From: an uncultured Gammaproteobacteria bacterium
GTDB lineage: Bacteria > Patescibacteriota > Microgenomatia > UBA8517 > JACQJR01
DNA: 64,000 bases
Reading direction: 5' to 3'
Assembly: GCA_964442455.1 (NCBI GenBank)
Contig: CAYTZB010000001.1
Span: 85,910 to 149,909, forward strand
The position numbers and the translations under genes were made by a program. The notes below the pieces were generated by a model. It did not search any database and was not told where the DNA came from. It saw only the letters and a program-made list of their open reading frames with translations. Below, one piece after another: positions 13,930-58,675 of this stretch; positions within the stretch are counted from its first letter, which is position 1; each line of letters begins with the position of its first letter.

Positions 13930-15354
13930 ATGGATATAAAAACTTTGAAACATATCCATTTCACCGGCATTAAGGGTGTCGGTATGACAGCGCTTGTCTT
14001 ATGTGCACAGGATTTGGGGATAAAGGTAACCGGTTCTGATGTTGCCGAGGTATTTGTGACGGATGAGACACTAGAAAAGCGTGGGATAAGATGGAATGTG
14101 GGATTTGGTGAAAAGAATTTAGACCCGAGGCCTGATTTAGTTATTACCACCGGTGCTCATGGTGGATTACGCAATCCTGAGGTAGTGGCAGCACAAAAAA
14201 TGGGTATCCGAGTGTTAACACACGCCCAGGCGCTGTATGAATTTACGAAGGGGAAAGAAGTTATCGCGGTATGCGGAGTAGGTGGTAAATCAACGACCTG
14301 CGCAATGATTGCAACGATTTTTGATGAAGCAGGACTTCATCCGTCGTTTGCTATAGGCGTGGGGGACATTCCATCACTTGGTGCTCCGGGAAGATACGAT
14401 AAGAAGGGGAACGTGTTTATTGTTGAGGCGGACGAATATGCAATTTCTCCGGGGGTTGATAACCGGCCGCGGTTTAGTCTACTTTCTCCGCGAGTCATTG
14501 TTGTTACTAATATTGAGCATGACCATCCTGACATTTATAAAACTTTAGAGGATACGAAAAGAGCGTTTCGAGAATTTTTTGAAAAATTACCCAGCGATGG
14601 TTTGCTTGTTGCAAATGGAAACAGTGAGAATGTCCGCACGATAACTAAAAATCTCAAAGTAAGAGTTATAATGTACGATATTGAAAATTTAGAACTTTCT
14701 ATTCCTGGTAAGTTTAATCAGGCAAATGCGACTGCAGCTTCTGCAGTTGCAAAATTTTATAACAGCATTCAAGAATACTCCGCAATTTATTGCGGAGATG
14801 AATTGAACGCTGATATGTCATCCTCCTTTAGAGGGAAACCCAGCTCGTTAGAGCGGGGAGGATGTCATAAAATCCCAGAAGAAATAATTAAAAGAGGACT
14901 CCAAAATTTTAAAGGTGTTAGACGTCGGTTTGAAAAAATGGGTGAAATAAATGGAGTATTGTTTTATGATGATTACGCTCATACCCCAAATGAAATAAGG
15001 GCTACACTAGGAGCCGCTCGTGAATGGTTTAATAACCAACGCATAGTTGCAGTTTTTCAACCTCATACCTATTCTCGAACAAAAGCGTTACTTAGCGAAT
15101 TCGCGAAGAGTTTTAGTGATTCGGACATAGTTGGAGTTATGGATATTTATGCTTCCGCTCGGGAGAATGATACTTTAGGTATGTCGGGAGAGCTACTTGC
15201 AAAAGAAATTTCTCGATACCACAAAAATGTTGCCTATACGGGTAATCATGAACGAACTATTGAGTGGATTAAAAAAAATAGTAAAAGCGGTGATATAGTT
15301 TTGACTTTAGGGGCAGGCGATATTTTTTTATTGCACAGGATAATTAATTCATAA
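13930..15354 (+). CDS. murC: UDP-N-acetylmuramate--L-alanine ligase MurC (carries an in-frame 38-codon repeat-element insertion)
   Basis: N-terminus HIHFTGIKGVGMTAL, P-loop GVGGKSTT, and C-terminal DDYAHTPNEI. An extra 38 aa sit between the conserved AVAKF and IPEEIIKRGLQNFKGVRRRFE. Confidence 0.9.
   Translation: MDIKTLKHIHFTGIKGVGMTALVLCAQDLGIKVTGSDVAEVFVTDETLEKRGIRWNVGFGEKNLDPRPDLVITTGAHGGLRNPEVVAAQKMGIRVLTHAQALYEFTKGKEVIAVCGVGGKSTTCAMIATIFDEAGLHPSFAIGVGDIPSLGAPGRYDKKGNVFIVEADEYAISPGVDNRPRFSLLSPRVIVVTNIEHDHPDIYKTLEDTKRAFREFFEKLPSDGLLVANGNSENVRTITKNLKVRVIMYDIENLELSIPGKFNQANATAASAVAKFYNSIQEYSAIYCGDELNADMSSSFRGKPSSLERGGCHKIPEEIIKRGLQNFKGVRRRFEKMGEINGVLFYDDYAHTPNEIRATLGAAREWFNNQRIVAVFQPHTYSRTKALLSEFAKSFSDSDIVGVMDIYASARENDTLGMSGELLAKEISRYHKNVAYTGNHERTIEWIKKNSKSGDIVLTLGAGDIFLLHRIINS
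14759..14872. mobile_element. 114-bp palindromic MITE/RPE-like element A, copy 1 (inside murC, in frame)
   Basis: Same architecture as 58032-58144 and the truncated 25471-25537. It has a conserved 5' arm (TATAACAGCATTCAAGAA), three hairpins with compensatory changes, and a near-inverted 3' arm (GGAGGATGTCATA). Confidence 0.7.
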
Positions 15355-25470: not shown

Positions 25471-25537
25471 TTATAACAGCATTCAAGAAAACTCCCGACT
25501 TTTAGTCGGGTGATGAATTGAACGCTGATATGTCATA
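25471..25537. mobile_element. element A, copy 2 (truncated: 5' arm and hairpin 1 only), ending 4 nt before the ftsA start
   Basis: Matches copies 1 and 3 up to GATATGTCAT. The internal module between the two ATGTCAT direct repeats is missing. Confidence 0.6.
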
Positions 25538-27021: not shown

Positions 27022-28794
27022 ATGATCGCTGAACGTCAAGAAAATAAAGCCGTTCAATTGAACGGTCGAGATTGGTTATCCCCTGAGGTTGATGATATTG
27101 CACGTCAAGCAATTAGAGATATGGTGCCGCAGAGATCTGAGGATGGTAATGGTTTGCATTCACAGGAAGAGTTAAATAATGCATTATCAATTTCTTCCTT
27201 TCGTAGAAATGGTCTCCTTGGAATGTTACATATAAAATTTGATGGCGATATTGAGCAAGCTTTAAGATTTGCATATCCTGAGATTTTTAGAAAACCACTT
27301 TTACATCTTGATGAACCTCATTATGGTGATCCTTTTCAAGAAACATGGAGGGAAAGAGAACGCGAAATTGAAGGCAGAATAATATCGACGATGGAAAGGA
27401 GTAGGTTAGGTCATATCTATTTCTACGATAATGAAGTTATTGATAGTGATCAAAAAGCAAGGAAACTTATGAAATTGGGTAGACGGGTCGAGCGCCATGT
27501 AAACCGAAGAAATACCCGTGAACGTCATCACGAAAAAATAGACGTTGACGAATGGCAGGGAAGAGAAAATGAAGATTTTCAAAGAGCAATAGTTCGTTTT
27601 CTAAAACTTGGTGATAGCGTCGCAGGTTTTCTCGGCAGCAACGATACTGAAATTCCACGTTCTATTTTAAATCGAATTGGACAACAAGGAGTATTTTATA
27701 TGATAGGTCGCAGAAATTATCCTTATAACGAACTCGCCGGTTCATTTCCTAACGCAAATAATAGAGGAATCGAGGACGAACTTTTAGCAAGAGCTCTTGA
27801 GTTGGGAGAGTCTTTAATATTGAACAACTACGATCAAGAACAAATAAAAAAAACACTTAACGGTCATAAAATCTATCCAGTTGTCTACAGACCTCCCAAT
27901 CTTCCTGAAGAAATTTCTCGACATTCTTTAAATGCTTTCATTGTGAGCGATCGAGTAAGGGAAATTTTGGAAGAATTTAGGGAAGATTTCCTATGGGCAA
28001 TAGATTCAGCTTTAAAACAAGGTGGATATTTAATTTTTCGAGAAAACGCCAGGCAACAGACAAATATTGAGTACTATGGCCAAGATCTTTGGTCTAGCAG
28101 ATATCAAAGAGTAGGGACGGGAACGAAATCGGCCCAATTAATGATTTTTCGTAAAGTTGCTACAGGTAATTCTATGGTTAGTATTTCTCAAACAGTTTCA
28201 GAAAGTTCTCAATCGACTGAAAATGAAGAGGAATTTGGAGTGTGTACTATTGAACATAAGTGGGAATTTGAAAACGGAGAAGGGGCTGATAAGCAAATTT
28301 ACGCAGCACTTAAGCATGTTATTGAACAAAAACATAGATTAAACGGGGAAGTTACAGAAGCTCAACAGATAGACGAGTTACTAAAAGGAACGTTGAGCGT
28401 AAGTTGGTTTAGGAAAACTGGGCTTTTGCCAATCTTATTTAGTCGGTTTGGCGGAAGTGTTGAAAAAGCAGCGGAGTTTGTTATAGAACATAACCAAGCA
28501 GGAAGAACTCCTCCAACTATTATCCAAAGATCTCCTGAAGGGGCAAAATCCTCTTATAATCTCTACGATCTTGCCAAAGAATTGGGAGTTAGGATAGATG
28601 TTATTAGAAAAACTCTAAATAATGCTGGTATAAAAGGAGTACAGTCACAAAGAAATAAAGGGAATTTTCACCCCCAAACAAGTAGAATGCAATTTTCTTA
28701 TCAGGAGTTTTTAACATTAAGAGATGTATTACGGAGGGATTTAAATGTAGAAAAGGCTACCAAGGAAAGGAGCGATAATGCAGAGAGAATTTGA
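27022..28794 (+). CDS. hypothetical protein (590 aa) with two copies of a WF[RQ]K-GLL ... FA[YW]PE-F repeat module
   Basis: Long ORF. Its repeats SSFRRNGLLGMLHIKFDGDIEQALRFAYPEIF and SWFRKTGLLPILFSRFGGSVEKAAEFV are shared with the N-terminus of the following giant protein. The C-terminus is HTH-like. Confidence 0.65.
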   Translation: MIAERQENKAVQLNGRDWLSPEVDDIARQAIRDMVPQRSEDGNGLHSQEELNNALSISSFRRNGLLGMLHIKFDGDIEQALRFAYPEIFRKPLLHLDEPHYGDPFQETWREREREIEGRIISTMERSRLGHIYFYDNEVIDSDQKARKLMKLGRRVERHVNRRNTRERHHEKIDVDEWQGRENEDFQRAIVRFLKLGDSVAGFLGSNDTEIPRSILNRIGQQGVFYMIGRRNYPYNELAGSFPNANNRGIEDELLARALELGESLILNNYDQEQIKKTLNGHKIYPVVYRPPNLPEEISRHSLNAFIVSDRVREILEEFREDFLWAIDSALKQGGYLIFRENARQQTNIEYYGQDLWSSRYQRVGTGTKSAQLMIFRKVATGNSMVSISQTVSESSQSTENEEEFGVCTIEHKWEFENGEGADKQIYAALKHVIEQKHRLNGEVTEAQQIDELLKGTLSVSWFRKTGLLPILFSRFGGSVEKAAEFVIEHNQAGRTPPTIIQRSPEGAKSSYNLYDLAKELGVRIDVIRKTLNNAGIKGVQSQRNKGNFHPQTSRMQFSYQEFLTLRDVLRRDLNVEKATKERSDNAERI

Positions 28795-31700
28795 ATCTCA
28801 AAGAACGATAGAAATAACACCGGGCAAATCTCCAACTAATGAAGTTATAGAAAGGGTAGGTAGAGAAATAACTCACTGTGATTTGCTCCATATGTGGAAT
28901 TTTGAGGTGGATGGGAGGAACCAGCAAGAGATAGATGAAGAACTTCAGGAAGCAATAAGGCATGTTGTAACGTATACACATACCATCAATGGTGCAGAGT
29001 ATGGAGGCTACCTACCTGATGAGACACTTGAAGAAAAATTGAATTTAGCGTGGTTTCAGAAAGTGGGACTGTTAAAACCAGTGGCGTTGCAGTTTAAGGG
29101 TGAAATTGCAGATGTTGTTCGGTTTGCGTGGCCTGAAGGATTTCACCAGGAAGAGCAAGAGAGAGTCCAGGCGTTTCGTTTGAGACCAGATACAATTGAA
29201 TTTTGGCAGGAATTAAAGAAAGATCTAGAAGGAATACAAACGCCCAAAAATATGGCACTTTCAACTTTTATGATGTATTACGATCCTCGAACAAAAAGGC
29301 AATCTTATCTTGAGGGAGGTAAATATATATACCTTTACGGCCTCTTTTTTCAGGATACATTAGCTGAAGAGTCGATTCATAACCCGGTTGATTATTTAAG
29401 CTCCCGATTCAATCCACCTCGTGATAATCAAGAATTTATTGATCTAGTCAAGGAAACACGTGAGCTTGCGGAGATAAAGCTTCGTAAACCCTATGGAAGT
29501 GTTATGGACATACAAGAAAGGCTTGCAGATCCTAGTTTTTTGGAAGAGTTTGTAATAGATTTGAACGAATATACTGAAGATTTCACTTTTGCTAACTTTA
29601 TGCAAGGCTGGTTGAATTATACAACTCCCAATGGTGACATCATACGGTGGAGTGCTAGAGGAAAGTACAGAGAGCTTCTCAATGATCTTTTAGCACGAAG
29701 GTGGATTGCACAACTGGGCGAAAATGCCGGTTCTGAATCTACACCAAAAAAACCCGCTGAAATATTTTATGAAGCTGCTCCGCAGAACCTCAAACTTTTA
29801 CTTTTGGCGAAATTTCCGAAGGATTTTTCCCATCTTACACTCGAAAGTTTGGAACAGAGTCAGGTAGTGTCAGATGAAGTTCGTGCAATACTTGAAGAGA
29901 CCAGCTTACTGGGAGTTGATAGTCAAGATCGTATTTTAGAGACGCTTGGGAATTATATCTTAGCTAAACATAAAAATAATGAAAGTCTTAATTATCTTGA
30001 TGGTCAACGAATTAAGACGATTTTACTTCAAGTTTCTCAACAAATTCTTCCCGCAGTTATTAGAAGAGCTGCTTCTTCCAAAACGGAGAGCGTTTTAACC
30101 GATAGTCGCATAGTTCCTACAGTTTTGAGCGAAGCAAACTCAGAGAATCAAGAAGTTGCTGACTCTGCCCAAGAGTTGTTGGAATCTCTTAGGGAGGCGT
30201 ACTACTTTCCCCTGCTTAAAAGTTTACTTTACAAACCAACAGCGCTTTTTTGGACTTCATATTTAACTGAGCACCCCGAAGAGGTAACAGTTCCTCCTGC
30301 CATGTTAATTAATTTCCTTGAAAAGCATTTAAAAGGAAGAGTAGAAGAAATTGCTCTTCAAGGCGATCAAAAAGAGGTTCTTGGTTATTTAAGTCAAGAG
30401 GTACTTCCTAATGTCTATCGCCACTTTGCTGAAGTTGCTACCTTTGCCCAGACAATTGCTCACTTTAGAACAAAGGATATTGAAGGGAAACCTCAACATT
30501 TACTTTTTCACCAAGTAGAAGGAATTAAGAAATTGATCGAAGATAAAGGCGGAATTGTATCAGATGAACCTGGTACTGGCAAAACACTTATACTTGCGCT
30601 TTCTGCACTTAATCTGATGGACAGAAGCGGAATTGTTGGACGAGGTACACCTGGGCGCGCTTTAGTAGTTGGGACAAAATCAGTAATAGATAATTGGGAA
30701 AGTGAACTGGATGCACATATACGAACAGACTATATAGATGTTGTAAATGTCAACTTCACCAATCAGAAAGATAGACAAGTGAGTAGAGATGAGTTACAAG
30801 CCCGGTTACGTGAGCTAGAAAGATTACTTCGAAACCCTAGACATCAGAGACAAATGGTATTGGTCAATTACGATTTGTTCAGACACCCTACATTTAAAAA
30901 GATTTTGGGATCTTATCCGTTTGATTCTGTGATAGTTGATGAGGCACATAACGTTAAATCTCGGTTTCTTGAATCAATTAATACCTATGAGAAAAGCGAT
31001 GATTTACGGAGTAGCACGAGTGTAGCTAAAAGAACAAGGGGTCTTTATAGCTACATCAGAACTAGTCCTGACCTTTCTGTATTTTTTGCCACGAGTACAC
31101 CTTATGTTAAAGAGCTTGTCGAACCTCTTATTATGGCGCATTTAGTTAACGAACAACTTGTACCTAGAGAAAGGGTACAACAACTTATGGAAGATACTGT
31201 TGGAACTCACCAAGTATTAAGACAAGTGATGATTCGCAGAAAGAAAGAGGAGATAGCTGACTTACCACCTAAAGAAACGGTAGTAGTTCCGATTGATCTT
31301 ACTTTGCTTTCCGAGGAGGAGAAGCAAGAGTTTAAAGCAATAGCACAAGAGATTATGGAGAACGAAAATTTTGCTGCACGGTTTTATTCAATGCTTTCGC
31401 TTGAAGGTTTGGCCAAATATCCCTGGTTGACAGAAAAGGTTAAAGAGCTTATTTCAGATGGTCGCAAGGTAATTATCTTCACCCCCTTTGTGGTTGGAGA
31501 AAATCGATATACTGCGCCGATTAGTACCGCACGAATAGCAGCAAAATTAATGGGTGCAGGAATTCCAATCAACTCAGTTGCTGTTTTGGACGGAAGTTTA
31601 GATGAAGGAGAACGAATTAGTGTGCAAGGACGTTTTCGTAACCAGCGAGATCCGAAAGTTTTAGTTGGTAATTACATTACCGCAGGAGAGTCAATAACAC

Positions 31701-34700
31701 TCAACTCACCCACCAATAGAGCTACGGAAGTAATTATCTTTGTGGGGCCAAATACAATTACTCGCTATATTCAAGGGGTTGACCGAAGCCACAGAATTGG
31801 GCAAACAGAAAAAGTTACCATTCACATACCATATGTTACTGGAGATTTGCTTGGACGAGGTGAGACCTACGACGAAGCAGTAATTAAACGACTTATGGAT
31901 GAACTGGTAGTTTTTGGAGCTGTCGTCGACGGGCGATTCTTTATGGAGCCAAAAGATATCTATCAATCAATTATTCAAACAGATAGAGCAAAACCGAGAG
32001 GTAGTGTTGAATTTACACGAGAGCATCGACAACGATCAAGAGAGAGGCGACGTGGTCCTTATACACCTCGGTTGCCCGGAGAACCAACTCCAAGAGTAAT
32101 GATAAGTGAAGATGAGGTTATCGATTTTGGATGGATGCAAAATATTCGTGAGGTTGTTACTCGTGAGAGCGAGTCTGAACAGGATATAGTGAGAATGTAT
32201 CTAGAGCAGATAGGACAATACCCACTATTTAATCCGGATAATCCAAATCACGAAAGATTGGCGTTCGATTATTTTAAAAGTGACAGAACCCTTGATGAAT
32301 TAAAGATAGATTCAGAATTTCTTTCAATGATTAATCCGCGAGATAGAGAAGATTTTGGACGTGTTCTGACTGATAGCCAAAGTATTCAAGATTTAATTAT
32401 TAACTGTAATCTCCGCTTGGTAGTTTCAGTAGCTCGTCAACGTCAAGGTCGCGGCTTACCCCTTTTGGATTTAATACAAGAAGGAACATTTGGCTTAATG
32501 CATGCGGTTGAACTCTTCGAACCCGAGCGAGGAAATAAATTTTCAACATACGCAACGTGGTGGATACGCCAAAGTATAAACAGAGCGATCATGAATTCTT
32601 CGCAGACAATCCGATTGCCAGTTCATATGTATGAAAGAATTGGTTTGGCTCGGAGATTTGCAAGAGAATTTGAAGCTACAAATGGTCGCACCCCAAAAGT
32701 GAGTGAGCTGCGCGAGTTAGTTTTAACTCAAACAAAGTTTTCCGAAAGTGAAGTTGACTCTGTAATCGAAACCATTGCTTCAGGAGTTATGCAAATGGGC
32801 ACTTTGGACTTTGAGATTGGGGAAGATGGAGAAGATACATTATATGATGTCGTTGCCGACAAGAGAATGGATGTTGAAGCAACTGTTTTGGAAGAAACAG
32901 AGGATGATGAGCTGAATACTGAGGTAAAGAGGGCTCTGAAAGAGAATTTGGATGAAAGAGAAAGAAGAATAATAGAGTTAAGATTCGGTTTGGGTGAAAC
33001 AAGAGAGAGAACTCTAGAAGAAGTCGGACAAGAATTTGGATTGACACGAGAACGTGTTAGACAGATTCAGGAAAGAAGTTTAGGCAAACTTAGTAGAGAC
33101 AAACAATTACGCGCTCGGTGGGAAGGCGATGCTCCGAGTTTTGTGTATCATACGAGTGCAGAGCAAGCAGCCATCAGGTTAGGATTATTCAATAAGAAGC
33201 AAAGTTATGTCGAGAAAGTTGTCGCAGAGTTACCTCCCCATCTTCAGAGTGTGCTTAATCAACGTATTCTCAAAGCAGCATCTTTGATAAATGGAGATGC
33301 ACAAAATGGGACTTCCGAAGTGGATCAAAGTTATCAATTTACACTTGCACGACTTGCAGTATGGGAGAAGTTAGGGACACTTTATCCAGACGATTTAACT
33401 GACTCACGGCAACGTCGTGAAATATATGGAAAAGATTTTGGGCCATATTTTGACCTATCGCTTATGAAACGGTTGTATGAGCGAAGGGATGGTAGAGTTA
33501 GACTGTTAGATAATCGAGTGTTATCGCACTTTTTTGGATTTGGCGATGGTCAGAAACCCCTCTTAAGTGTAGAGAAAGTTACTCAAGAGCTAGGAATTCC
33601 ACAGGATACAGTTACCGCGGGTCTTCATAAGGGGTTGCAGGTACTTGAAGCTCCACCAGAGAAGAAAACCAGAGCAGAAGAGCTCAGCAGAGAACACAGC
33701 ATTGTTGCACAGGCGTTTCGCAATCAAGAGATTTGGGATCAAATTCCTGATAGAGAAAAAAGCATATTAACACTCTATTTCATACGTGGTGGCGATCAAC
33801 AAGTATTAAAAGAGAATTTTTCGAGAATTTTCGGGATTTCTCTGCCTGAAGTAGATGCACGAATAAACGCTGCAGTAGAGTTAACTGAACGACTTTTAAC
33901 AGAAATTCAGGCTAAACCAGAACGTCAACGAAGGGTAACAAGAGGAGAACTTAGAGATATGGTTGAAGGATTATTGAAAGAGTATCCTTGGTTGAGCAAT
34001 AGCGAAGTAACAGAGCATCTTTCAACAAAACTAAAACAAGATTTAAGCAAAGCTCGTGTTGACCAAGCGAGGAAGAGCTTGGTTGCCCTTGAGAGAGTAG
34101 AGTCACGGCGTGGAAAATTAGATATACTTGACTCAAGAGTCGAAGCATTACTACTCCAAGGATTAAAACCCCAGCAAATTGCTGAGAGTTTGGTTCAATC
34201 AGAAAAAAGAGTTATTGCTTCTATAAGAAGATTGATTAGCACAGGAAATCTTGATACCCAACTTATTCAGTGGAGAAACGATGGCCTTTCAAAGGAAGAA
34301 ATTGCTGAAAGAATAGGAAGTTCAGCTGTTACCATAGGGAGAAGGCTCCGGGTACATGTTGAATCTGGTGCTCTACCTTTCCATCCTCGTGATCCTCGGA
34401 CAGTTGATGATTCTGGAGTTACCGAGCACGTCAGAAACCTAGACGGTATGGTTGAGTCATTGATTCTTCAAGATCCAAAAATAAAAACTAAAGAAATTAT
34501 TGCTGCATTGGAACCTACAGTAGGAAAATACATGGCGGAATTAACAATCCGGAGAGCAAAGAAGCGGCTGGTAGCTGCAGGGAGAATACCTTCTCATTTA
34601 TTTAATCTTACCCATGAGGAAGCAGTAGCTTTAGATCAACAAGTAGAAGAATTGGTAAAAAACGGAAATCTCTCTTATAAAGAGATAGCTGCTGCATTGA

Positions 34701-34951
34701 ATCAGCCAATCAGCAGAATTAGAAATTCTAAAGAAAGACTTGTCAAGACTCGCAGAATTGAGCCTAATCCAAAGTATGTTGACAAAGGAGCTAGTGCAGC
34801 TCTAGAGGAGTACTTATCAACACATCATGGTGATGAAATTAATTTATCAGAGTTTGCGCGCTCTATTGGTATTAGCCGCGAACGCGCAAGCCAACTCTAC
34901 AAGCGGTTAACCAATTCGCAGCTTAAGGAATTAATGACGCGGAGGAAGTAA
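28778..34951 (+). CDS. giant multidomain protein (2057 aa): N-terminal unknown region, SNF2-family ATPase/helicase, complete sigma-70 (regions 1.2, 2, 3, 4) and a C-terminal array of HTH repeats
   Basis: SNF2 motifs: LLFHQVEGIKKL, DEPGTGKTL, VIVDEAHNVK, and helicase-C QGVDRSHRIGQ. Sigma motifs: VRMYLEQIGQ, DLIQEGTFGLMHAVELFEPERGNKFSTYATWWIRQSINRAI, RLPVHMYERI, and LRFGLGETRERTLEEVGQEFGLTRERVRQIQERSLGKL. A strong RBS (GGAAAGGAG) sits 6 nt upstream, with a 17-nt overlap onto the preceding gene. Confidence 0.85.
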   Translation: MQREFESQRTIEITPGKSPTNEVIERVGREITHCDLLHMWNFEVDGRNQQEIDEELQEAIRHVVTYTHTINGAEYGGYLPDETLEEKLNLAWFQKVGLLKPVALQFKGEIADVVRFAWPEGFHQEEQERVQAFRLRPDTIEFWQELKKDLEGIQTPKNMALSTFMMYYDPRTKRQSYLEGGKYIYLYGLFFQDTLAEESIHNPVDYLSSRFNPPRDNQEFIDLVKETRELAEIKLRKPYGSVMDIQERLADPSFLEEFVIDLNEYTEDFTFANFMQGWLNYTTPNGDIIRWSARGKYRELLNDLLARRWIAQLGENAGSESTPKKPAEIFYEAAPQNLKLLLLAKFPKDFSHLTLESLEQSQVVSDEVRAILEETSLLGVDSQDRILETLGNYILAKHKNNESLNYLDGQRIKTILLQVSQQILPAVIRRAASSKTESVLTDSRIVPTVLSEANSENQEVADSAQELLESLREAYYFPLLKSLLYKPTALFWTSYLTEHPEEVTVPPAMLINFLEKHLKGRVEEIALQGDQKEVLGYLSQEVLPNVYRHFAEVATFAQTIAHFRTKDIEGKPQHLLFHQVEGIKKLIEDKGGIVSDEPGTGKTLILALSALNLMDRSGIVGRGTPGRALVVGTKSVIDNWESELDAHIRTDYIDVVNVNFTNQKDRQVSRDELQARLRELERLLRNPRHQRQMVLVNYDLFRHPTFKKILGSYPFDSVIVDEAHNVKSRFLESINTYEKSDDLRSSTSVAKRTRGLYSYIRTSPDLSVFFATSTPYVKELVEPLIMAHLVNEQLVPRERVQQLMEDTVGTHQVLRQVMIRRKKEEIADLPPKETVVVPIDLTLLSEEEKQEFKAIAQEIMENENFAARFYSMLSLEGLAKYPWLTEKVKELISDGRKVIIFTPFVVGENRYTAPISTARIAAKLMGAGIPINSVAVLDGSLDEGERISVQGRFRNQRDPKVLVGNYITAGESITLNSPTNRATEVIIFVGPNTITRYIQGVDRSHRIGQTEKVTIHIPYVTGDLLGRGETYDEAVIKRLMDELVVFGAVVDGRFFMEPKDIYQSIIQTDRAKPRGSVEFTREHRQRSRERRRGPYTPRLPGEPTPRVMISEDEVIDFGWMQNIREVVTRESESEQDIVRMYLEQIGQYPLFNPDNPNHERLAFDYFKSDRTLDELKIDSEFLSMINPRDREDFGRVLTDSQSIQDLIINCNLRLVVSVARQRQGRGLPLLDLIQEGTFGLMHAVELFEPERGNKFSTYATWWIRQSINRAIMNSSQTIRLPVHMYERIGLARRFAREFEATNGRTPKVSELRELVLTQTKFSESEVDSVIETIASGVMQMGTLDFEIGEDGEDTLYDVVADKRMDVEATVLEETEDDELNTEVKRALKENLDERERRIIELRFGLGETRERTLEEVGQEFGLTRERVRQIQERSLGKLSRDKQLRARWEGDAPSFVYHTSAEQAAIRLGLFNKKQSYVEKVVAELPPHLQSVLNQRILKAASLINGDAQNGTSEVDQSYQFTLARLAVWEKLGTLYPDDLTDSRQRREIYGKDFGPYFDLSLMKRLYERRDGRVRLLDNRVLSHFFGFGDGQKPLLSVEKVTQELGIPQDTVTAGLHKGLQVLEAPPEKKTRAEELSREHSIVAQAFRNQEIWDQIPDREKSILTLYFIRGGDQQVLKENFSRIFGISLPEVDARINAAVELTERLLTEIQAKPERQRRVTRGELRDMVEGLLKEYPWLSNSEVTEHLSTKLKQDLSKARVDQARKSLVALERVESRRGKLDILDSRVEALLLQGLKPQQIAESLVQSEKRVIASIRRLISTGNLDTQLIQWRNDGLSKEEIAERIGSSAVTIGRRLRVHVESGALPFHPRDPRTVDDSGVTEHVRNLDGMVESLILQDPKIKTKEIIAALEPTVGKYMAELTIRRAKKRLVAAGRIPSHLFNLTHEEAVALDQQVEELVKNGNLSYKEIAAALNQPISRIRNSKERLVKTRRIEPNPKYVDKGASAALEEYLSTHHGDEINLSEFARSIGISRERASQLYKRLTNSQLKELMTRRK

Positions 34952-58007: not shown

Positions 58008-58031
58008 AGCAGTGAGTTTATTATAACAGCA

Positions 58032-58144
58032 TTCAAGAAAACTCCCGACTTTCAGTCGGGAGATGAATTGAACGCTGATATGTCATCCTCCTTTAGAGGA
58101 AACCCCGCTTTTCAAAGCGGGGAGGATGTCATAGTATAATTCTT
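58032..58144. mobile_element. element A, copy 3 (full length, intergenic)
   Basis: About 85% identical to copy 1. Hairpins 1 and 3 differ from copy 1 by compensatory changes (CGCAATTTATTGCG vs CGACTTTCAGTCG; GCTCGTTAGAGC vs CCCGCTTTTCAAAGCGGG). Confidence 0.7.
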
Positions 58145-58675
58145 TTGACATGAAATTTGCGGTTGGGAGCGATGAGAAGACTAAGATAACGGACTTTGTG
58201 GTCGATTATCTTAAAACACGTACAAAAACTCTATATTGACGTTTATTAAAAACTAATTTCATAATAAAAGATAGAAAGGGGGTAAGATGACTGCAACAGG
58301 TGAAAAACATTGGCACGCAAGCTATTACTTTCCTGCATTTATTTTATGGACACGTCATGATGAAGAAGGGAATGTAACTTTGGAGATTCTTGCCGCACTT
58401 GGTATAATTCCAATTGCGGTTAAGTTAAACTTCTAAAGGTATAAAGTACACGTACGGGTCCTATCTAATGGTCAATTCTTTTCTTTCGCGCTCGACCCGC
58501 ACCCGAGCGCGCAACGCGGATTCTTCTTGTGAGCTCTTGAACGTATTTTACAGCTTAAAGCACTGAAAGACCACTTTCTCCAATCTTCTGGAATTAAGTT
58601 CTATCATTCTCTGTTAATTCCTGTTATACTATGGAGTAGACCGCTAACGTCTGACCAAAGGCGGTTTTTTGTTTT

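Follow-up and report, generated by a model that had tools for sequence, protein, structure and literature searches.

An in-frame insertion in murC

The DNA considered here, which we call the window, is a stretch of 64,000 nucleotides (nt) from contig CAYTZB010000001.1 (GCA_964442455.1, positions 85,910-149,909 of the forward strand). Its murC gene carries a short palindromic element in frame, and two further copies of this element lie elsewhere in the window. In an alignment of 21 sequences a 36-residue segment (NSIQ...GGCH) is private to the window MurC and absent from 20 orthologues, so there is no segment of similar length at this place in the orthologues, which encode Phe-Tyr or Phe-Cys at the insertion position. 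The best database relatives of the protein come from Microgenomates-group bacteria. The nearest of these is a MurC-MurB fusion that is 87% identical outside the insert and reads AVAKFC/KIPEE (the slash marks the insertion point), where others read FY/GI. At the DNA level the relative has GCAAAATTTTGTAAAATTCCAGAA at the site, and the window with 14761-14868 taken out has GCAAAATTTTATAAAATCCCAGAA. Comparison of this empty site with the filled site in the window gives a gain at murC of exactly 108 nt. A previous reading of the window, made from the sequence only, had proposed an insertion of 114 base pairs (bp) or 38 codons; the insertion is real, but the alignment and the DNA of the relative set its size at 108 nt and 36 amino acids (aa).

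The 22-kb locus of the relative that is syntenic with the window (L042) contains no copy of the element anywhere, including murC and the region upstream of ftsA. In this relative murC and murB are fused in one ORF (open reading frame) of 764 aa (L042:10001-12295), whereas in the window they are separate ORFs lying 17 nt apart (15354 and 15372).

In the Pfam assignment the insert sits between Mur_ligase_M, which ends at residue 253, and Mur_ligase_C, which starts at residue 332. An AlphaFold2 model of MurC has a mean predicted local distance difference test score (pLDDT) of 86 and a predicted template modelling score (pTM) of 0.85, and its pLDDT falls below 50 only at residues 281-313, which are flanked by helices at 261-279 and 317-326. 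Low pLDDT over the insert is to be expected, as the alignment holds no homologues of it. The Pfam bounds and the model both agree with the earlier placement of the loop between the central and C-terminal domains. They are consistent with, though they do not prove, a tolerated and disordered surface loop at the interdomain linker, and MurC with the insert is presumably still functional. Peptides that span the insert would include ones with the string DELNADMSSSFR.

Without the insert the MurC proteins of this clade are 436-447 aa long and lack a central-domain segment of about 35 aa found in other Microgenomates MurC proteins (alignment columns 258-300). The insert offsets this missing segment and restores a 'normal' total length, which could mask it in length-based checks. 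Sequence alignment to solved MurC structures taught us nothing about the insert, which phmmer placed against the missing region of about 35 aa.

Copies and fold of the element

Three copies of one repeat lie on the + strand of the window, at 14761-14868, 25475-25536 (truncated) and 58025-58132. Both of the copies outside murC had been recognised in the sequence-only reading, and only their coordinates (58032-58144 and 25471-25537) needed correction. The 25-nt core GATGAATTGAACGCTGATATGTCAT has three exact occurrences in the window (14797, 25512 and 58062) against 0 expected in shuffles, and the 18-nt 5' arm also occurs three times. The copies align end to end, with the 25-kb copy stopping after the core; its end is the internal ATGTCAT, and an ftsA-like start codon follows 7 nt downstream. 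At the murC copy ATAA stands at both junctions, a junction ambiguity of 4 nt.

For searches and scoring we used a covariance model built from 32 copies of the element only, with no insertion sequence (IS) included. It recovered all copies and four diverged ones, and a scan of the window with it found no copy beyond the three.

The copies follow a common plan, namely (t)TTAT/AACAGCATTCAAGAAAAC, a variable GC-rich hairpin, GATGAATTGAACGCTGATATGTCAT, a small hairpin, GAAAC, a variable 8-bp tetraloop hairpin and AGGATGTCAT, followed by variable flank. The left end after TTAT reads AACAGCATTCAAG... and the right end ...GGATGTCAT. The hairpins are subterminal, with a left linker of 17 nt and a right linker of 10 nt. 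The modal length is 108 nt, found in 66 of 112 measured metagenome copies among the matches listed, and shorter forms of the family do without both inner hairpins of domain 2.

Both full-length window copies fold into two domains with energies well below those of shuffled sequences (z = -7.2 and -7.7). Covariation was measured in 37 model-aligned copies from many genomes, an alignment that was itself fitted to the covariance model. Standard pairs occupy 96% of cells, compared with 85% in shuffles and about 40% with slid partners; double changes occur at 17 of the 39 pairs, and 149 cells covary compared with 35 in shuffles and 15-22 in slid controls. The compensatory changes between copies that had been read from the window alone thus hold in this larger set. 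The small hairpin covaries too, and an independent MAFFT and RNAalifold run gave seven covarying pairs in hairpin 1. The outer helix P1 (CAGC.TTCAA with TTGAA.GCTG) is invariant in canonical copies and covaries in diverged ones, for example as CTCGA/TCGAG. G-U pairs (34) exceed A-C mismatches (7), from which it follows that selection acts on the fold of the strand that carries the element.

The sequences of hairpins 1 and 3 swap between copies; for example, CCCCGCTCTTTAGAGCGGGG forms hairpin 1 in L002 and hairpin 3 in L027 and L038. The loop of hairpin 3 is UUCA, UUUA, GUUA or GUCA. Outside the hairpins, about 50 nt are invariant across the genomes sampled. In some copies a hairpin mini-element of about 45 nt, GCTTCGATAATACTCAGCATGATACTGAGCCTGTCGAAGTATCAT, is nested (L036:3890-4048, L036:2157-2348 and L022:4708-4864). 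It lies directly after the internal ATGTCAT and has its own end TCAT, as if it followed a rule of insertion after T(C/T)AT.

The features described are collected in Table 1.

Table 1. Features of murC, the element copies in the window and the left ends of related insertion sequences (a slash marks the target junction)
Feature	Positions	Strand	Details and basis
murC ORF	13930-15354	+	474 aa, intact, reads through the element without a stop; ORF list, Pfam Mur_ligase, Mur_ligase_M and Mur_ligase_C, orthologue alignment
TTAT target tetranucleotide	14757-14760	+	directly 5' of the element; part of the native Phe-Tyr codons TTT TAT
Element copy in murC	14761-14868	+	108 nt, 36 codons NSIQEYSAIYCGDELNADMSSSFRGKPSSLERGGCH; junction ambiguity +/-2 nt; model score 123 bits
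Left linker	14761-14777	+	17 nt, AACAGCATTCAAGAATA; CAGC and TTCAA pair with 14803-14812 as helix P1
Hairpin 1, left subterminal	14778-14797	+	CTCCGCAA-TTTA-TTGCGGAG; 8 of 9 pairs covary in 37 copies
Invariant core	14798-14821	+	ATGAATTGAACGCTGATATGTCAT; includes P1's 3' strand and repeats the right-end heptamer ATGTCAT internally
Domain-2 stem 5' arm and small hairpin	14815-14838	+	ATGTCATCC..., then TCCT-TTAG-AGGG; fold and covariation
Hairpin 3, right subterminal	14839-14858	+	CCCAGCTC-GTTA-GAGCGGGG, 8-bp tetraloop hairpin; 5 of 8 pairs covary
Right linker	14859-14868	+	10 nt, AGGATGTCAT, terminates the element; last 8 nt conserved 83-100%, 3' flank beyond variable
Truncated copy	25471-25536	+	TTAT + 62 nt, domain 1 only; model score 71 bits
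Intergenic full-length copy	58021-58132	+	TTAT + 108 nt; model score 137 bits
IS type 1, left end			tttat/TCTTCCTTTGCAGAAAAC-[hairpin]-ATGAATGG
IS type 2, left end			tttat/TAAACTTGGGCGAAAAC-[hairpin, UUCA loop]-ATGAAG
IS type 3, left end			tttat/TAAAAGTCGAGAATAC-[hairpin]-ATGAATCGAC; GTCGA/TCGAC replaces the P1 helix of the element

The intergenic copy is flanked by a divergent 61-aa ORF (start 58007, - strand) and a 29-aa ORF (start 58150). The latter, MKFAVGSDEKTKITDFVVDYLKTRTKTLY at 58150-58239, begins 17 nt downstream of the copy; by eye we take it to resemble the N-terminus of ribose-5-phosphate isomerase B, and it may be a gene remnant. Elsewhere in the window, positions 28778-34951 form a single very large ORF of 2057 aa.

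Target site and strand

A census of genomes and metagenomes gave 150 unique copies among the matches listed, and flanks were counted in 147 unique copies. The four positions 5' of the element are T in 95%, T in 93%, A in 100% and T in 100%, that is TTAT. After the terminal GTCAT the next base is A in 50%, T in 25%, G in 13% and C in 10%, and this variability of the 3' flank excludes a TA duplication. In murC the TTAT belongs to the native Phe-Tyr codons and is therefore target, not part of the element. The net gain there equals the length of the element, 108 nt, with no target duplication beyond a possible 2-bp AT. The copies examined had no convincing terminal inverted repeats and no long inverted termini.

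Copies also show an orientation bias, with 67 in the same direction as the majority local coding strand and 31 opposed (p = 3.5e-4). The window itself has a GC skew of +0.12 and 84% of its ORF length on the + strand, and all three copies lie on this G-rich strand. Elements of the IS200/IS605 family insert 3' of a tetra- or pentanucleotide in single-stranded DNA, such as the lagging-strand template, and their transposase TnpA recognises subterminal imperfect palindromes; the left linker of wild-type IS608 is 19 nt (PMC3597680). The target rule, subterminal hairpins and orientation bias of the element agree with these traits, and its linkers of 17 and 10 nt are arranged much as in IS608.

Distribution of the family

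The exact 22-mer GAATTGAACGCTGATATGTCAT was found at 41 loci in the genome set of GTDB species representatives. Most of these are labelled as Microgenomates-group bacteria (Woesebacteria, Blackburnbacteria, Shapirobacteria or Microgenomatus) or as Patescibacteria, and two metagenome-assembled genomes (MAGs) are labelled Gammaproteobacteria. A scan of metagenomes with the same 22-mer added at least 120 further loci, and the structure is conserved across both sets; a search of viral contigs gave no matches. At the 41 genome loci the 5' motif stood no further than 70 nt from any match to the 22-mer, and no autonomous IS with near-identical ends was found there. In the metagenome loci 121 of 133 matches to the 22-mer, among those listed, had the 5' motif within 130 nt. 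Of five other metagenome matches listed, four carry the motif in a variant spelling, and L060 alone differs in its structure upstream. The proposal that a multi-copy, structure-conserving palindromic element stands in frame in murC is thus borne out by the three window copies, by the covariation in 37 copies and by these further loci.

Several copies lie 10-50 nt from tRNA genes or clusters, upstream in the same orientation or divergent (L004:1125-1736, L008:3089-3286 and L011:4199-4473). One Woesebacteria contig has a group I intron (L008:5330-5533; Rfam, 62 bits) about 2 kb from a copy. Public gene calls place spurious 'hypothetical proteins' of about 22-78 aa on intergenic copies (P0121-P0154). 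A profile of the encoded peptide was tried as a census of host proteins and abandoned, as it yielded no more than 34 tiny ORFs, called on intergenic copies, and failed to pick up the large hosts already known.

In other genomes, in-frame copies free of stop codons lie in genes for an arginyl-tRNA synthetase (L017) and a P-type ATPase, in the latter within the HAD domain (L032). Further in-frame hosts are a UvrD helicase, in antisense orientation (L031), a DUF192 protein (L012) and large membrane proteins (L001, L040 and L035). When at least 40 aa of ORF are demanded on each side, 15 of the 150 unique copies lie strictly within ORFs, in two sense and two antisense frames, and all but one of these are a multiple of 3 nt in length (108, 111 or 78). 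The sense core in genes always reads DELNADMSS, which is the only stop-free frame of the core. The number of stop-free frames per copy averages 1.32, compared with 0.91 ± 0.10 in shuffles; this excess is suggestive only, because the copies are related to each other. The data support in-frame residence in unrelated genes as a general property of the family.

In its hairpin-1 variant the murC copy does not differ from a 108-nt copy of another genome (L015), which marks it as an ordinary member of a subfamily that was already open in that frame; no compensating changes of its own were needed to keep the frame. A 78-nt copy lies in frame in an ORF with the downstream sequence …LSLAMWFMDDG… (L154 and L129). 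By eye we take this ORF to be LAGLIDADG homing endonuclease-like, in which case it would be a mobile element within a mobile-element gene.

Relation to IS200-group insertion sequences

At one metagenome locus (L145) an IS200-type tnpA gene lies 380 nt downstream of a copy of the element, in the same orientation. Its product has 910 Y1_Tnp homologues in the database, and we examined several contigs, from metagenomes and MAGs, that encode such homologues; one of the proteins is labelled Candidatus Woesebacteria. Three IS types among them share the left-end grammar of the element, tttat/N17-(GAAAAC/GAATAC)-hairpin-ATGAA... (Table 1). Independent insertion sites of types 1 and 3 have only the TTTAT flank in common. 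At the right ends a tetraloop hairpin is followed by 9-13 nt, namely AGATTGTTCAC, GAGTGGGTTCAAT and AAGTTTTAC, where the element has AGGATGTCAT.

The element-only model matches the IS left ends on the tnpA strand, at 37, 35 and 24 bits (E = 1e-6 to 1e-3), and the matches to IS ends are the best non-element matches in those loci. At one locus two short ORFs with Y1_Tnp matches (L163:1069-1460), a broken second tnpA, are located 1.5 kb upstream of an intact one among NUDIX genes.

We also considered a TnpB guide RNA (ωRNA or sotRNA) and set it aside, as no tnpB motif adjoins the element and the related IS carry tnpA alone. A regular-expression scan, a crude test, of about 1.06 Mb comprising the window and the element-bearing loci gave no TnpB zinc-ribbon or RuvC-III motif.

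Origin of the element

The data show the insertion in murC, its target rule, the conserved structure, a relation to the ends of IS200 elements and further in-gene copies outside murC. The reading we put on them, and consider highly probable, is that the element is a non-autonomous derivative of IS200/IS605 elements (IS200 group) of the kind known as palindrome-associated transposable elements (PATEs), with a tolerance for in-frame residence like that of the Rickettsia palindromic elements (RPEs). It would consist of a left end and a right end fused to each other, the transposase gene being absent. A Y1 HUH TnpA encoded elsewhere would act in trans by recognising both subterminal hairpins on one DNA strand and excising this strand as a circle, which would then be pasted 3' of TTAT in single-stranded target DNA without target duplication. 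In murC the element entered at a TTAT within Phe-Tyr codons, where the central domain meets the C-terminal one. Given a length of 108 nt and a subfamily free of stops in that frame, the gene gained 36 residues instead of breaking.

Several points weigh against an IS200-group origin. The similarity at the right ends is weak, the element-only model scoring 17-20 bits there on the tnpA strand (E = 0.01-0.03). There is no tnpA in the 64-kb window or in any element-bearing locus except L145, and no autonomous IS with ends closely matching the element was found. The roughly 50 invariant nt outside the hairpins are more than known IS608-type recognition needs, and an added role at the RNA level is possible. 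Each copy has AT at its two junctions, so that a duplication of a 2-bp AT target looks the same as no duplication, and the termini agree in inverted orientation at 8 of 12 bases, a weak similarity read by eye. The orientation test takes gene direction as a proxy for replication direction. Lastly, a diverged copy (L034:3365-3481) has the same 11-nt string, ATTTTACCATA, on both sides and misfits a TTAT target without duplication.

Some of these points would be natural for a cut-and-paste miniature inverted-repeat transposable element with short imperfect terminal inverted repeats and a 2-bp AT duplication, moved by a DDE transposase of the Correia or IS630 type. Its termini would be ATAACAGCATTC and ATGACATCCTCC (the reverse complement of the 3' end), which are the ends that agree by eye at 8 of 12 positions, and the AT at both junctions of every copy would be its duplication. 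We regard this as very improbable. The base after GTCAT may be A, T, G or C, excluding a TA duplication, and the conserved TT before the AT has no mirror image downstream, so that the target rule is one-sided. The wobble and orientation biases are strand-specific, the model matches the ends of IS200-group elements, and no DDE transposase was seen flanked by the ends of the element. It is improbable also, although compatible with an IS200-group origin, that the element is primarily a functional structured RNA, either a small RNA resembling the archaeal HgcC or a cis-regulatory leader, with its spread and the murC copy as by-products. Such an RNA would account for the strong covariation, the excess of G-U pairs over A-C mismatches, the many copies directly upstream of genes or tRNA genes, the roughly 50 non-hairpin nt invariant across the genomes sampled and the reproducible similarity to expressed archaeal HgcC (PMC4247193). 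Hairpins in single-stranded DNA, however, account for the same covariation and wobble bias, and every HgcC score is under the Rfam gathering threshold. Copies lie in both orientations inside unrelated ORFs, the syntenic sites of a close relative are without them, and the TTAT rule holds for nearly all of them.

The remaining alternatives concern murC itself. The segment might be removed before the protein functions, as an intron or intein would be, and MurC would then never be made with the loop. In favour of this are the essential nature of the host gene, the group I intron in L008 and the rRNA-gene introns for which genomes of the Candidate Phyla Radiation (CPR) are known. Set against this are the 14 of 15 in-ORF copies that are a multiple of 3 nt long, which is expected only if they are translated, and the absence of stops in the host frame of the gene-resident copies confirmed by Pfam or flanking ORFs. 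Furthermore, Rfam gave no match to a ribozyme or intron family, and 36 aa are far too short for an intein and contain no intein motifs. Removal is therefore extremely improbable. That there was no insertion, the segment being a MurC loop of this lineage or an artefact of assembly, is already refuted, and we give it practically no weight: the 474 aa of the protein are a typical MurC length only because another segment of about 35 aa is missing, the closest relatives (436-447 aa) are without the insert, the same DNA is intergenic in the window and occurs in well over 150 other places, and independent assemblies have the same kind of in-frame copies.

A bolder extension of the IS200-group origin, which we think unlikely, is that the family is specifically adapted to coding sequence in gene-dense CPR genomes and is a bacterial counterpart of the archaeal HgcC RNAs. 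Its canonical length of 3n, the stop-free frames in both orientations and the frequency of TTAT in AT-rich codons would fit such an adaptation. If the link to HgcC were true, HgcC would be a cross-domain family of elements derived from IS200 ends that are also expressed as structured RNAs, and the roughly 50 invariant nt would stem from a function in addition to transposition, as RNA or in protein binding.

The genomes of CPR bacteria are tiny and dense in coding sequence, and mobile DNA is usually said to be scarce in them. On an IS200-group origin, a minimal IS200-derived element is widespread in Microgenomates and persists in essential genes (murC, argS and uvrD) as a translated extra loop. 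The element would explain odd lineage-specific inserts in CPR proteins and spurious small ORFs on intergenic copies, and it is a likely cause of contig breaks. The TTAT target, the hairpin ends acting as single strands and the Y1 transposase also offer a mechanistic handle that is missing for classic RPEs, for which we know of no established transposition mechanism. In addition, the element supports an origin of the Rfam family HgcC, listed as 'function unknown', from IS200/IS605 ends.

Comparison with known systems

The sequence-only reading had taken conserved structure together with in-frame insertion as the hallmark of both RPEs and the Neisseria Correia elements. The RPE-like in-frame behaviour stands; the likeness to Correia elements does not go beyond small size, many copies, hairpin formation and occasional residence within transcripts, as Correia elements are bounded by 26-bp inverted repeats and a TA duplication, neither of which was found in the element copies. 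Repetitive extragenic palindromic (REP) sequences and REPINs are likewise short hairpin repeats that rely on a Y1 HUH enzyme related to IS200 TnpA. They are about 20-40 nt long, intergenic and typically arranged as inverted doublets, and are served by a single-copy domesticated REP-associated tyrosine transposase (RAYT), whereas the element has 108 nt, distinct left and right ends and related IS with an ordinary tnpA.

RPEs insert in frame in many genes, and the peptide segments that they add have been judged compatible with the protein fold (PMC10969869). They share with the element a size of about 100-150 bp, hairpin folding and in-frame residence in many unrelated, often essential genes. 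The hosts belong to different phyla and the likeness is drawn from behaviour, not from sequence; unlike RPEs, the element is tied to IS200-group ends.

PATEs are non-autonomous derivatives of IS200/IS605 elements known from Haloquadratum, Halobacterium and Geobacillus (PMC4615843, PMC10055086). Like the element, they consist of fused left and right ends without a gene and have subterminal hairpins, a one-sided tetranucleotide target, no target duplication and a presumed mobilisation by TnpA in trans. In both, the hairpin of the right end is 8 bp long and carries a UUCA or UUUA tetraloop (the 'RE-like tetraloop', PMC4615843). The element differs in its host, CPR Microgenomates, in its very compact form of 108 nt and in the three-way junction of domain 2. 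It also differs in its repeated in-frame residence in housekeeping genes, for which we found no report in PATEs, and no ωRNA or TnpB partner was seen in the loci scanned by regular expression. The ingredients, PATEs and RPE-like in-frame palindromic elements, are therefore known. The novelty, as far as we could find, lies in the family, in the phylum of its hosts and in the fact that an identifiable IS200-type origin goes together with repeated insertion into essential genes. The in-frame event is known from Rickettsia, and a literature search of limited reach gave no description of such an element in Microgenomates or other CPR bacteria.

The only Rfam family matching the copies is HgcC (RF00062), on the same strand and across the whole model. 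It scores 36 bits in the window (E = 6e-7 for 301 nt) and 28-34 bits in seven of eight other loci; no match reaches the gathering threshold of 50 bits in 18 loci or the window. At gathering thresholds Rfam finds tRNAs only in the window, and no ribozyme or intron family. The core was also compared by eye with the consensus motifs of hammerhead, C/D-box and k-turn RNAs, none of which fits. HgcC RNAs overlap IS605-type transposase genes or lie within other ORFs in Thermococcus (PMC4247193), they have been tied to IS200/IS605 ends and PATEs (PMC4615843, PMC4247193), and they share with PATE-derived RNAs an 8-bp UUCA tetraloop hairpin of the 'RE-like' kind (PMC4615843). HgcC and the element have the same order of parts, namely a hairpin, GAUGA..GAAC, a small hairpin, a tetraloop hairpin and GAGGAnGUCA. 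They differ in a 37-nt region of the HgcC model that is absent here and in the hosts of HgcC, which are archaeal hyperthermophiles; HgcC is moreover defined as an expressed RNA, whereas the element is known from DNA alone. By Rfam's own criterion the element is not a member of RF00062. We nevertheless class it as working like HgcC and PATEs and as probably a distant relative of both.

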